In this document: positions 1,025 through 3,246 of the stretch, piece by piece
How the letters are laid out: the number at the start of each line of letters is the position of its first letter
Position numbering within the stretch: the stretch's first letter is position 1
Virus record (IMG/VR): IMGVR_UViG_2693429582_000015
Reading direction: 5' to 3' (one strand)
Origin: a virus
Lineage: Duplodnaviria > Heunggongvirae > Uroviricota > Caudoviricetes
Length of the DNA stretch: 4,103 bases
The notes under the pieces: generated by a model
The model's input: only the letters and a program-made list of their open reading frames with translations
Told to the model about the DNA's origin: nothing
Database searches by the model: none
Program-made: the position numbers and the translations under genes

Positions 1025-1492
1025 TCACGGTATACACTGGGTACGGATATATTCCTGTGCTCCTTCCAGTTGCTTCTGCATTGCCATCAGCCGTTCTCTG
1101 AGGATGAAATAATCCCGTTCAGCGGCTTCTGCCAGTCGGGGACCGGTTGCATTATCCACGCCGGAGGTGATGGGGGCTTTACGCAAGGAGCCTGGACAGT
1201 TGGCGTTGATGCGCAGGCGCTTACGACCAGCGGCAACATCAGCACGCAGAGTTTCATTTTCAGCTCTCGCATCGGCTAATTCCCTCGAGTATCTGGCATC
1301 AAGTGCAGCAACATCACGCTGGCGCTGCTGCATATCAGTAATGGTTGCATTTGCCAGCTCCAGCTCACTGACTTTTTTATCGCGCTGCTCTTTGTAGGTT
1401 ATGGCGTTATCGCGGTAATGATTCAGCCCCAGACTAAGTGCACCACAGGCTACCAGCAGGACAATAATCACCACACACAGAACACGGTTCAT
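1025..1492 (-). CDS. Rz: Rz i-spanin (inner-membrane spanin subunit), 155 aa
   Basis: Translation has an N-terminal TM anchor (VLCVVIIVLLVACGALSLGL) and a long charged coiled periplasmic domain. Strong similarity to lambda Rz as I recall it (NHYRDNAITYK, RQRDVAALDA, AERDYFxLRERL, MQKQLEG motifs). Contains an embedded Rz1 frame. Last gene of the lysis cassette. Confidence 0.93.
   Translation of the reverse strand: MNRVLCVVIIVLLVACGALSLGLNHYRDNAITYKEQRDKKVSELELANATITDMQQRQRDVAALDARYSRELADARAENETLRADVAAGRKRLRINANCPGSLRKAPITSGVDNATGPRLAEAAERDYFILRERLMAMQKQLEGAQEYIRTQCIP
1087..1272 (-). CDS. Rz1: Rz1 o-spanin (outer-membrane lipoprotein spanin subunit), 61 aa, embedded in the +1 frame of Rz
   Basis: MRELKMKLCVLMLPLVVSACASTPTVQAPCVKPPSPPAWIMQPVPDWQKPLNGIISSSENG: lipobox LVVSAC, proline-rich mature part, near-identical core to lambda Rz1 (CVKPPPPPAWIMQPPPDWQTPLNGIIS). 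Lies entirely inside Rz in a different frame. Confidence 0.9.
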   Translation of the reverse strand: MRELKMKLCVLMLPLVVSACASTPTVQAPCVKPPSPPAWIMQPVPDWQKPLNGIISSSENG

Positions 1493-1648
1493 CTCTCTTT
1501 CACCCCACCAGTCCCGATAACGTCAGGACTCGCCAAGCGGTGGAAAAGAAAATGGCAACCAGAATGACTAAAAATGAAATGCCGACGATTACACAGAGGA
1601 TCTTCGCCAGCGTTATGAGTTTATCCGATATCATTAGCCACCACTCCA

Positions 1649-2218
1649 TCAATCCGCCTTTGTTATTTTCCCTTTGTCTGTATCAGCCAGGACAAAATCA
1701 ATCAGCAGATTCGCTTCGTTTATCAATGTGCGGATTTTTGATACATGCGCGGATTTAACCTGTTTCCACTCATTCAGCCCGGTAGCAAACACACTGGCAA
1801 TGTTTTTATCCCGTTTCATGTCAGCGCAAGCCTGATTGAGTTCTTCCATCACACTCATTCGACGGGGATTAACGACAAAACCCTTCGTCCAGTATTCATA
1901 GAGAACATCGTCACACTCTTCCTGATACTGGATTACCTTGCCGCGGATTTCGGGTTTTACTTTGTTGGGATTGATGGTTTGTAACCAGCCTGCAAGTTTT
2001 CGAAGCGGCAGGGACACCATATTGCGTCGTTTCCCATCCTCAGCAACCATAACGATTTCCGTTATAGTTGACGCAAAACGCTGTCTTAACTTAGCCAACT
2101 GTGATTGCCAGGCCAGCCCCATCCCCGCAACGACAGGTTTCATGGGAACGTATGGTTCGCCGTTATGGTTAACCACATAAAGAGAATCGCCGTGAAACGG
2201 CACGGTCATCATATTCAT
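1649..2218 (-). CDS. Phage antirepressor-like protein (resembles the N-terminal domain of P22 Ant), 189 aa
   Basis: ORF with ATG at 2218 and SD AAGGAA 7-8 nt upstream. N-terminus MTVPFHGDSLYVVNHNGEPYVPMKPVVAGMGLAWQSQLAKL matches my recollection of the antirepressor N-terminal domain fold. Sits between endolysin and Rz, as reported for an ant-like gene in Stx phage 933W. Family call not verified by search. Confidence 0.75.
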   Translation of the reverse strand: MNMMTVPFHGDSLYVVNHNGEPYVPMKPVVAGMGLAWQSQLAKLRQRFASTITEIVMVAEDGKRRNMVSLPLRKLAGWLQTINPNKVKPEIRGKVIQYQEECDDVLYEYWTKGFVVNPRRMSVMEELNQACADMKRDKNIASVFATGLNEWKQVKSAHVSKIRTLINEANLLIDFVLADTDKGKITKAD

Positions 2219-2353
2219 CGGTTATTTCCTTTTAGTGATGAACCCTGCGCACAGGAATAACCAGCCCAAAGAGGGTTAACCAGACCACTGCCGGTTATCC
2301 ACCAGGGCTCATCCTGAAAGGTTCTTTGGTTTATTTACGCTTGTGCGAAGCGC

Positions 2354-2383
2354 AGAAATGACAAAGGCACCATTACGGTGCCT
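2354..2383 (-). terminator. Weak candidate hairpin/terminator between endolysin and antirepressor-like gene
   Basis: Stem AGGCACC (2365-2371) pairs with GGTGCCT (2377-2383), 5-nt loop. On the minus-strand transcript the hairpin is followed by UUGUCAUUUCU, which is only moderately U-rich. Marginal. Confidence 0.3.
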
Positions 2384-2492
2384 CTTCATGAAACAATCTT
2401 GTTGACTTTATTCACTTACATTTTGCCAGTTCGCAGGATTTCGTGTTGTCTACCCGCGTTGGCCAACGTCATTTTTCAGCAAAATATTCTGC

Positions 2493-3026
2493 TTACCTGT
2501 CGATACCCCAGCATGCCAGCGCACTCTCCTGGTCACGTCTTGATACCTGACCGTAACAGTTGTTTGAACGGATACGGCAGTCTCTGCCACCGTCCTTAAT
2601 CCACCAGCGAATCGCCTCACACGCTCCCCTGCGATCGCCTGCATTAAGCCGCTTATAAAACGTCGACGGGAAACACTTACCGGGGCCAATGTTATAGGGG
2701 CAAAATGACGCGATACCTGCTTTTTGTGGCTCGGTCAGTGGAACTTTTATATTACGCTCCACCCATGCCAGCGCCTTATCCCGTTCGATAGCGTTAACCC
2801 GGTCGCATTTTTCCTTCGACAGCTTCATGCCAGGAATCACAGGCTTACCATCCACCATGATGGCGCCTCGGCAGATGGTCCAGATACCCGCACCATCACG
2901 GTATGCCGTGGTGTGGTTGCCTTCCTTTTCATCCAGAAACTGGTCGAGGATTTCAGGCGCAGAAGCACCTGCGGCAATCAGCGCCAGAACGGCAGCCGAT
3001 AAACCATAGCGGAGTTTCCTGCTCAT
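2493..3026 (-). CDS. R: SAR endolysin (T4-lysozyme-like muramidase with N-terminal signal-anchor-release domain), 177 aa
   Basis: N-terminus MSRKLRYGLSAAVLALIAAGASAPEIL: basic residues then a Gly/Ala/Ser-rich weakly hydrophobic segment, with Pro directly after ASA (disfavours signal peptidase cleavage). Catalytic triad spacing E-x8-D-x5-T in EGNHTTAYRDGAGIWT matches T4 lysozyme E11/D20/T26. ATG at 3026 with SD GGGAGAG overlapping the holin 3' end, 4-nt gap to the holin stop. Confidence 0.92.
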   Translation of the reverse strand: MSRKLRYGLSAAVLALIAAGASAPEILDQFLDEKEGNHTTAYRDGAGIWTICRGAIMVDGKPVIPGMKLSKEKCDRVNAIERDKALAWVERNIKVPLTEPQKAGIASFCPYNIGPGKCFPSTFYKRLNAGDRRGACEAIRWWIKDGGRDCRIRSNNCYGQVSRRDQESALACWGIDR

Positions 3027-3030
3027 CAGC

Positions 3031-3246
3031 TTACTCTCCCCGTGCCGCCTTACGCCTGTCCTCTCTGATTTTGAAATACAGGTTCGTCAGGTACGTCAGC
3101 AGACCAAACAGCAGACTCCCCAGCACGCCTATTGCCGCCCACTGAGACGGGGAAACCCTGTCCAGCAACTGCAGGAACCAGTAGCCCGTTCCCACCGCTG
3201 ACGTGGTGTATGACACACCTGTTGTGATTTTTTCCATCTGGTTCAT
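3031..3246 (-). CDS. S: Class II holin (phage 21 S-like pinholin), 71 aa, dual-start motif
   Basis: [71 protein letters not shown]: two TM segments and a charged C-tail, near-identical over its C-terminal two-thirds to the S21/EssD-type holin as I recall it. Strong SD GGGAGG 6 nt upstream of ATG at 3246. Met1 and Met4 give the dual start. The 96-aa track ORF (3031..3321) is an artefactual N-terminal extension. Confidence 0.9.

Follow-up and report, generated by a model that had tools for sequence, protein, structure and literature searches.

Organization of the Lysis Region

The window, the whole stretch of 4,103 nt of DNA that was analyzed, very probably contains at positions 1025-3246 the late-operon lysis region of a lambdoid prophage of the EHEC/Stx-phage type, with the gene order S - R - (leader - ant-like - orf49) - Rz/Rz1 (table 1). 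According to the ORF list and a Pfam search, the four lysis genes S, R, Rz, and Rz1 lie on the minus strand and are all intact, with 0 frameshifts or internal stop codons. The initial annotation had read the locus as an intact pinholin, SAR-type endolysin, and two-component spanin, which is borne out by complete open reading frames and family matches far above chance. It had also called the cassette complete; this holds for the set of genes but omits contiguity, as ~1 kb splits the endolysin gene from Rz. The interval (1493-2492) is made up of a 274-nt spacer, the gene of a 189-aa Ant-like protein, and the gene of a 49-aa membrane peptide. The good SD sequences claimed for the cassette are present upstream of S (GGGAGG), R (GGGGAG), and Rz1 (GAGGGA), whereas that of Rz (AAGAGAG) is moderate, and the claimed tight coupling of holin and endolysin is confirmed by the 4 nt (3027-3030) that separate the holin stop codon from the endolysin ATG.

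Table 1. Location of the Lysis Genes and Neighboring Features in the Window
Feature	Positions	Strand	Evidence
IS3-family (IS1203/IS629-like) terminal end	1-127	.	Positions 1-125 match IS3/IS1203 elements in many genomes
Rz, inner-membrane spanin subunit, 155 aa	1025-1492	-	PF03245 1.2e-46
Rz1, outer-membrane lipoprotein spanin subunit, 61 aa	1087-1272	-	PF06085 4.1e-19
orf49, single-TMD peptide, 49 aa	1500-1649	-	phrog_4906 1.8e-32, hydropathy
Ant-like gene, 189 aa, P22_AR_N + ORF11CD3	1649-2218	-	PF10547 8.5e-45, PF10549 2.6e-06
Spacer/leader, 274 nt	2219-2492	-	Folding; terminator-like hairpin 2363-2385 and a long hairpin
R, GH24 muramidase, 177 aa, SAR-type N-terminus	2493-3026	-	PF00959 3.4e-24
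S, class II pinholin, 71 aa	3031-3246	-	PF04971 "P21 holin S", phrog_9876/phrog_20 "holin", EssD identity, hydropathy
Intrinsic terminator, ~35 nt upstream of the holin start	3285-3314	-	13-pair stem followed by a U-run

By comparison with the sequence of phage Min27, S, R, ant, and Rz are under purifying selection (pN/pS of 0.10, 0.07, 0.15, and 0.38, respectively), and the cassette is probably functional if transcribed. A PADLOC search with the S, R, Ant-like, and orf49 proteins returned 0 matches and an Rfam scan gave no match within 1025-3246. A weak Esr41-like Rfam match was observed elsewhere in the window, at 3847-3923.

The Holin and the Endolysin

The holin matches PF04971 over profile positions 1-63 of 64 (9e-33, 112.5 bits with a cut-off of 26) and is 80% identical to EssD of the E. 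coli K-12 prophage DLP12; homology to known families is thus present for the holin as well as for the endolysin (PF00959). Two uncharged hydrophobic segments and in-frame ATG codons at codons 1 and 4 agree with the two-TM, dual-start holin that had been proposed. In the predicted topology, TMD1 (~7-28) is SAR-like (mean KD 0.71, 50% G/A/S/T), TMD2 (~36-57, KD 1.42) carries a G40xxxS44xxxG48 face that is identical in the EssD alignment, and the C-terminal tail is basic (net charge +3), with values for the TMDs and the tail that nearly equal those of EssD. Stx2a phages use pinholins of the P21 S family as their holins (PMC10462455).

An extra positive charge on the longer product defines the S21-71 antiholin (PMC9636201). 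This charge was looked for in the long form of the window holin and is absent: the extension between the start codons M1 and M4 (M-N-Q, compared with M-K-S in EssD and M-Y-Q in Min27) contains neither Lys nor Arg. Because the long form lacks the basic residue of the antiholin, the control of lysis timing may differ from that of phage 21.

The catalytic triad of the endolysin (E-x8-D-x5-T, residues E35, D44, and T50) aligns with that of R21 and is invariant in 31 homologues, so that the catalytic residues carry no inactivating substitution. Among solved structures, the best match both by sequence (3.8e-21) and by fold (TM 0.70/0.77, 37% identity) is the endolysin of the E. coli O157:H7 phage FAHEc1 (PDB 7m5i), with a sequence alignment that begins at residue 35 of the window endolysin and leaves the SAR segment outside; R21 (3hde) is matched at 4.1e-16. 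The putative SAR segment (residues ~7-24, YGLSAAVLALIAAGASAP) follows the sequence MSRKLR, is uncharged, and combines a KD of 1.52 with 61% G/A/S/T. A SAR-like N-terminus is kept across the 31 homologues (median KD 1.28, 56% G/A/S/T).

The layout of an n-region (MSRKLR), a 14-residue h-region, and a small-residue A-G-A|S motif, with a possible signal-peptidase site at A19-G20-A21|S22, would also fit a cleavable Sec signal peptide, in which case the secreted enzyme would be soluble and subject to another kind of control. This is highly improbable given the weak hydrophobicity and G/A/S/T content of the segment, both conserved in the homologues, and the AF2 model of the endolysin (pLDDT 94.4), in which residues 11-35 lie within the fold and form two helices (11-18 and 23-35) packed into the enzyme with pLDDT >94. 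The model fits full-length R21 and RrrD with their SAR domains included (3hde/4zpu, TM 0.76/0.81 over ~181 columns) and superimposes poorly on SAR-less R21 (TM 0.53). Furthermore, the endolysin gene lies 3' of a pinholin gene, and pinholin holes would be too small for a folded endolysin (PMC9636201).

A SAR-type endolysin being the preferred reading, its eight cysteines (52, 74, 109, 118, 136, 150, 157, and 172) all lie outside the SAR segment, which rules out disulfide caging of the P1 Lyz type. Orthology to R21 is likewise ruled out by an identity of 33%. The window endolysin carries extra conserved Cys residues, among them those of the D149-C150...C157 loop, which is missing from RrrD of DLP12; judged by these alignments, it is a separate cysteine-rich lineage that is not close to phage 21. 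An NCBIfam search gave a sole, sub-threshold match, to the endolysin.

The Spanins and the Proposed Lysis Pathway

The spanin genes have the features of the embedded, two-component lambda Rz/Rz1 type. Rz is 64% identical to RzpD of DLP12, with an N-terminal TMD at ~4-23 and two cysteines (Cys99 and Cys153) that align with the Cys residues of RzpD. The Rz1 gene lies entirely within Rz, in the +1 frame, and its product is 72% identical to RzoD; the lipobox of Rz1 reads VSAC and ends in Cys20, the +2 residue is Ala and thus not Asp, and the 42 mature residues include Cys30 and nine Pro.

P21-type pinholins form heptameric holes of ~2 nm that depolarize the membrane, and cytoplasmic endolysin is not released through them. 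By homology to phage 21, the cassette would with high probability act through successive pinholin, SAR endolysin, and spanin steps, a pathway reviewed in PMC9636201. Late transcripts antiterminated by Q would pass the terminator upstream of S and the pinholin would build up in the inner membrane, where the weakly hydrophobic TMD1 would exit the bilayer and TMD2 would oligomerize; the small holes formed in this way would collapse the proton-motive force. The endolysin, exported beforehand by Sec, would be tethered in an inactive state by its N-terminal SAR segment; on release, this segment would refold and become part of the enzyme body, as it does in active R21, and the E35/D44/T50 site of the freed enzyme would cut the murein. 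Finally, Rz in the inner membrane and the lipoprotein Rz1 in the outer membrane would join across the periplasm in a complex by which the outer membrane is disrupted.

The Insert between R and Rz

The spacer downstream of R contains a hairpin (2363-2385, -17.4 kcal/mol, z = -3.2) followed by a U-rich run. A 161-nt leader folds at -53.5 kcal/mol (z = -3.75), and the SD sequence of the Ant-like gene is predicted to be paired in its long hairpin. Compared with Min27, the spacer is 77.5% identical and contains one compensatory pair.

The Ant-like protein matches phrog_524 (3e-112) over positions 7-210 of a 317-position profile, and its P22_AR_N domain is accompanied by a short ORF11CD3 as the sole second Pfam domain. 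With 189 aa it lacks the architecture of a full-length P22 Ant (~300 aa, with a C-terminal antirepressor domain), and the name Ant-like is used here. The gene is absent from phage TL-2011c. The ATG of orf49 overlaps the stop codon of the Ant-like gene (TGATG), and 7 nt separate its own stop codon from the start of Rz. In 276 phage records, the orf49 reading frame is open with a coverage of 80% or more, at identities down to 67%; its pN/pS against Min27 is 0.93, a value derived from 11 changes only. As seen in sequence comparisons, the Ant-like gene and orf49 together form an optional insert that is characteristic of Stx phages.

A very unlikely reading is that both genes, instead of being passive cargo, take an active part in the lysis programme of Stx phages. 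As the long form of the pinholin lacks the antiholin charge, the orf49 peptide would in this reading be the missing inner-membrane timer or regulator of the pinholin, SAR-endolysin, and spanin steps, and a late Ant-like protein, gated by the SD-hiding leader, would be in cross-talk with co-resident prophages.

Transcription Signals and Expression

The 96 nt around the terminator upstream of S fold at -34.3 kcal/mol (z = -2.4), and this terminator should block read-through from upstream genes unless the polymerase is modified by Q. The late promoter and Q lie outside the window. A sigma-70 scan of the whole window found 0 sites (4.6 expected) and no independent promoter for ant or Rz. The long spacer and the terminator-like hairpin between R and Rz/Rz1 could lower the expression of the spanins. 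The lysis region is contained in RNA-run assemblies of related strains, with a flat contig depth that carries no information on regulation, and the prophage was not found in four raw-read runs with the same species label.

An alternative is that the cassette, intact as it is in sequence, is silent or crippled in this strain, either through loss of the late promoter or Q or through an uncoupling of the spanins by the 1-kb insert and the hairpin. The hairpin and U-rich run between R and ant, the lack of sigma-70-like promoters in the window, and IS activity beside the cassette, a sign that the region is decaying, all point in this direction. However, the insert, the spacer, and the hairpin are also found in 252 phage records, mostly of Stx-converting phages, and are therefore compatible with a working cassette, and purifying selection acts on all main genes. 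A silent or crippled cassette is rather unlikely.

Relatives of the Lysis Region

Many EHEC genomes contain window positions 126-4103 with an identity of 100%. Among phages, 258 records cover 80% or more of the cassette (best identity 98.5%, in Stx2a-converting phages) and 252 cover the R-ant-orf49-Rz junction. Stx-converting phages (for example the Stx2a phages LC616036, PA8, VT2phi_272, ArgO145, Min27, and P13374) share the gene order and the ant/orf49 insert with the window, as well as the upstream DUF1378-DUF826-terminator arrangement, and the R-ant-Rz junction of ArgO145 is 99.5% identical. The two differ downstream of Rz, where the window contains a PerC/Pch regulator gene followed by the IS3-family end whereas Stx2 phages carry bor and terminase genes.

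Phage 21 and DLP12 (S21/EssD, R21/RrrD, Rz/RzpD, and Rz1/RzoD) have the same architecture and inferred mechanism, with a class II pinholin, a SAR GH24 endolysin with an E-8-D-5-T triad, and embedded Rz/Rz1 genes, but only the holin is close. The four lysis genes of DLP12 abut or overlap with no insert, whereas 1 kb lies between R and Rz in the window. The assignment of the cassette to the phage 21 type therefore stands for the holin, which is closely related to the S21-type EssD, and does not extend to the endolysin (33% identity to RrrD/R21), to the ant insert of Stx phages that DLP12 lacks, or to the long holin form without the antiholin charge. The cassette itself is already known: many sequenced strains carry an identical copy, and this architecture has been described for Stx phages.

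State of the Prophage

The initial annotation had taken the intact cassette as a sign of a possibly inducible prophage rather than a decayed remnant. This step is unsupported, as defective prophages also keep lysis sets: in O157 Sakai, a full set is present in each of the 11 lambdoid prophages, most of which are defective elsewhere (PMC2669165), and the cryptic K-12 prophage DLP12 keeps essD-rrrD-rzpD/rzoD. A complete, self-sufficient, and inducible prophage would be consistent with the intactness of all lysis genes, with the 98-99% identity of the cassette to the Stx-converting phages ArgO145, Min27, and P13374, and with the presence of the region in the RNA-run assemblies, but is unlikely for several reasons besides the lysis sets of Sakai and DLP12. 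At the left of the window, a ylcI/ynfO-family gene that lies downstream of the cassette is cut short by the adjoining IS3-family end, and the collinear match to prophages begins at position 126. The prophage of O157:H7 MB41-1, identical over window positions 126-4103, contains a portal gene annotated as frameshifted, and the 98.3%-identical copy of strain 2013C-4830 is part of a remnant that is riddled with IS elements and has neither terminase nor head genes. Repeats are present at both window ends, as in a fragmented draft assembly.

When the exact IS junction was searched for in 5,426 complete E. coli genomes, all matches were split into two pieces and non-collinear, and the junction therefore seems to be strain-specific; an exact look-up of the chimeric IS/ylcI ORF found no contig. 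The IS end that flanks the region, together with the condition of near-identical prophages in other genomes, makes a defective prophage the more likely case, as far as can be judged from a 4.1-kb piece.

Lysis cassettes of this kind release phage particles, and in Stx phages also toxin, from induced EHEC cells, and for this reason their correct annotation matters, including Rz1 and orf49, which usually remain unannotated. The practical lesson is that in EHEC an intact lysis cassette is no predictor of prophage inducibility.

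Organization of the lysis cassette

The lysis cassette (1025-3246) comprises the genes of the holin (S), the endolysin (R) and the two spanin subunits (Rz and Rz1), each of which scores far above the curated threshold of its own Pfam family, with concordant assignments in PHROGs. Only 4 nt separate the holin stop codon from the endolysin ATG, none of the reading frames is broken, and each gene has a ribosome-binding site (SD; GGGAGG for S, GGGGAG for R, AAGAGAG for Rz and GAGGGA for Rz1). Based on the family matches, spacing, SDs and unbroken frames, the coordinates and description in the initial annotation are correct and all four genes are intact. 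The cassette is complete in that sense but it is split: ~1 kb separates the Rz start (1492) from the endolysin stop (2493), an interruption that the initial annotation had missed.

Features of the lysis region and its flanks
Feature	Coordinates	Strand	Description
IS3-family (IS1203/IS629-like) element end	1-127		truncates ylcI/ynfO-family gene
PerC/Pch-family regulator gene	247-561	minus	PF06069, 5.4e-44; downstream of Rz
46-aa ORF			downstream of Rz
Rz	1025-1492	minus	155 aa; PF03245 "Rz", 1.2e-46
Rz1	1087-1272	minus	61 aa, inside Rz in +1 frame; PF06085 "Rz1", 4.1e-19
orf49	1500-1649	minus	49 codons, single-helix membrane peptide; phrog_4906, 1.8e-32
Ant-like gene (ant)	1649-2218	minus	189 aa; P22_AR_N + ORF11CD3 domains; PF10547, 8.5e-45; phrog_524 "anti-repressor Ant", 3e-112
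Spacer between R and Ant-like gene			274 nt
Endolysin R	2493-3026	minus	177 aa; PF00959 "phage lysozyme", 3.4e-24
Holin S	3031-3246	minus	71 aa; PF04971 "P21 holin S", 9e-33
Strong intrinsic terminator	3285-3314		upstream of S
NanS-p-type esterase C-terminus, DUF1378 gene, DUF826 gene			upstream of S

At least 80% of the cassette is covered in 258 phage records, nearly all of them Stx-converting (best identity 98.5%), and 252 records, ArgO145, Min27, P13374 and AU5Stx1 among them, cover the R-ant-orf49-Rz junction. The designation as phage 21 type fits the holin, which is 80% identical to EssD of the cryptic K-12 prophage DLP12, but not the endolysin, which shows only 33% identity to RrrD (the DLP12 counterpart) and R21, nor the ant/orf49 insert. 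The cassette is a Stx-phage variant and not strictly of the phage 21 type, and the finding is already known.

Holin and spanins

The two transmembrane segments expected of the holin are present: TMD1 is uncharged and weakly hydrophobic (mean hydropathy, KD, 0.71; half G/A/S/T), TMD2 has a higher hydropathy (KD 1.42) and retains the G40xxxS44xxxG48 face, and the C-terminal tail has a net charge of +3. Hydropathy, composition and tail charge are nearly equal in EssD. The dual start had been read from two in-frame ATGs, which do exist (codons 1 and 4), but the resulting extension is Met-Asn-Gln (3237-3246, minus strand), compared with Met-Lys-Ser in EssD and phage 21 and Met-Tyr-Gln in Min27. In S21-71, it is an extra positive charge that gives the long form its antiholin function (PMC9636201); since this charge is absent from the long form in this Stx-phage clade, the dual start is formal and an antiholin role putative. 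The strong holin SD is positioned for ATG1 and pairs with an upstream CUUCC in the predicted fold. In the literature, Stx2a-phage holins have already been assigned to the pinholins, within the P21 S family (PMC10462455).

The two-component spanin is likewise intact. Rz (64% identical to RzpD of DLP12) has a TMD at its N-terminus; Cys99 and Cys153 line up with the RzpD cysteines. In the embedded Rz1 (72% identical to RzoD), Cys20 belongs to a VSAC lipobox and is followed by Ala at +2; the protein also has Cys30 and a body rich in Pro. Ala at +2 of a lipoprotein points to an outer-membrane location, which would apply to Rz1. In RefSeq records, Rz is named "lysis protein" and Rz1 has no annotation.

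Endolysin

The endolysin belongs to the GH24 muramidases, and its E35, D44 and T50 match R21 in position. An alignment examined for loss of the catalytic Glu/Asp/Thr found all three retained and invariant in 31 homologues (drawn from 1.84 billion representative proteins searched). Of its eight cysteines, five (C52, C74, C136, C150 and C157) are shared by at least 90% of these homologues. The endolysin belongs to a lineage with additional conserved cysteines, including those of the D149-C150...C157 loop; the lack of this loop in RrrD and R21 suggests that the lineage has an extra loop closed by a disulfide.

The N-terminus reads MSRKLR followed by YGLSAAVLALIAAGASAP, which is weakly hydrophobic, 61% G/A/S/T and free of Cys, a character common to the homologues (median KD 1.28, 56% G/A/S/T). 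A possible A-G-A|S peptidase site within it would fit a cleaved signal peptide, a minor rival to the signal-arrest-release (SAR) segment initially proposed. In an alignment-based AlphaFold2 model (mean pLDDT 94.4), residues 11-35 form two helices packed into the enzyme, and the model can be superposed on the full-length structures 3hde (R21) and 4zpu (RrrD) over ~181 columns (TM 0.76/0.81) and more poorly on the SAR-less R21 fragment 3hdf (TM 0.53). N-terminal composition, predicted packing and superposition thus support an R21-type SAR endolysin, for which refolding, rather than disulfide exchange, is the predicted mode of activation.

The insert between R and Rz

The orf49 ATG overlaps the stop codon of the Ant-like gene, and orf49 ends 7 nt ahead of the Rz ATG. 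Its translation is coupled to that of the Ant-like gene, and the frame is often left without annotation. It has stayed open in each of the 276 phage records with orf49, at identities down to 67%. R and Rz of phage TL-2011c are the same, but the insert is missing there and is therefore an optional module; a different small hydrophobic frame, read off the alignment, appears to adjoin Rz in that phage.

The spacer contains a terminator-like hairpin (2363-2385). The 161 nt ahead of the Ant-like ATG (2205-2365, minus strand) fold at -53.5 kcal/mol compared with -39.6 for shuffled sequence (z = -3.75), and the SD of the Ant-like gene is paired within a long leader hairpin in the predicted fold. One stem pair is compensatory relative to Min27 (CCCUG/CAGGG versus CCUUG/CAAGG); an Rfam search gave no match for the leader. 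Elsewhere, IS3-family elements lie inside the lysis region of NZ_CP027325.1 (11408-12621) and phage PA8 (7271-8433) at different points, one between orf49 and Rz and the other between R and ant, and the stretch from R to Rz appears to be hit by IS elements repeatedly.

Against Min27 (~90% DNA identity), pN/pS values are 0.10 (S), 0.07 (R), 0.15 (ant) and 0.38 (Rz), the higher value being expected for Rz because of the overlapping Rz1 frame; orf49 gives 0.93, from just 11 changes.

Proposed lysis mechanism and inducibility

The analysis of the cassette covered sequence features, predicted fold, conservation and selection. By homology to phage 21 (PMC9636201), Q-modified late transcription would read past the terminator ahead of S, pinholin triggering would depolarise the membrane, the SAR endolysin would be released, refold and cleave murein, and Rz and Rz1 would disrupt the outer membrane.

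Many complete EHEC chromosomes, among them O157:H7, O45:H2, O103:H2 and O26, match positions 126-4103 at 100% identity. The exact IS junction of 1-127 was not found among 5,426 complete E. coli genomes. In appearance, the window is a short contig of a draft assembly with repeats at its bounds. In Stx2 phages, bor occupies the place held here by the PerC/Pch-family gene, upstream of which lies an AT-rich stretch. A weak Esr41-like sRNA match (3847-3923, plus strand; RF02676, 29.5 bits, E = 0.01, under the gathering score) has a terminator at its end.

The intact cassette had been taken to indicate a possibly inducible prophage. In O157 Sakai, the full lysis set is present in 11 out of 11 lambdoid prophages, most of which are defective in other functions (PMC2669165), and the cryptic DLP12 retains essD-rrrD-rzpD/rzoD. 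In the O157:H7 MB41-1 prophage, whose cassette is identical, the annotation gives the portal gene as frameshifted, strain 2013C-4830 carries a 98.3%-identical copy in an IS-riddled remnant that lacks packaging and head genes, and the copy studied here is itself flanked by an IS end. Inducibility therefore does not follow from the intactness of a lysis cassette.
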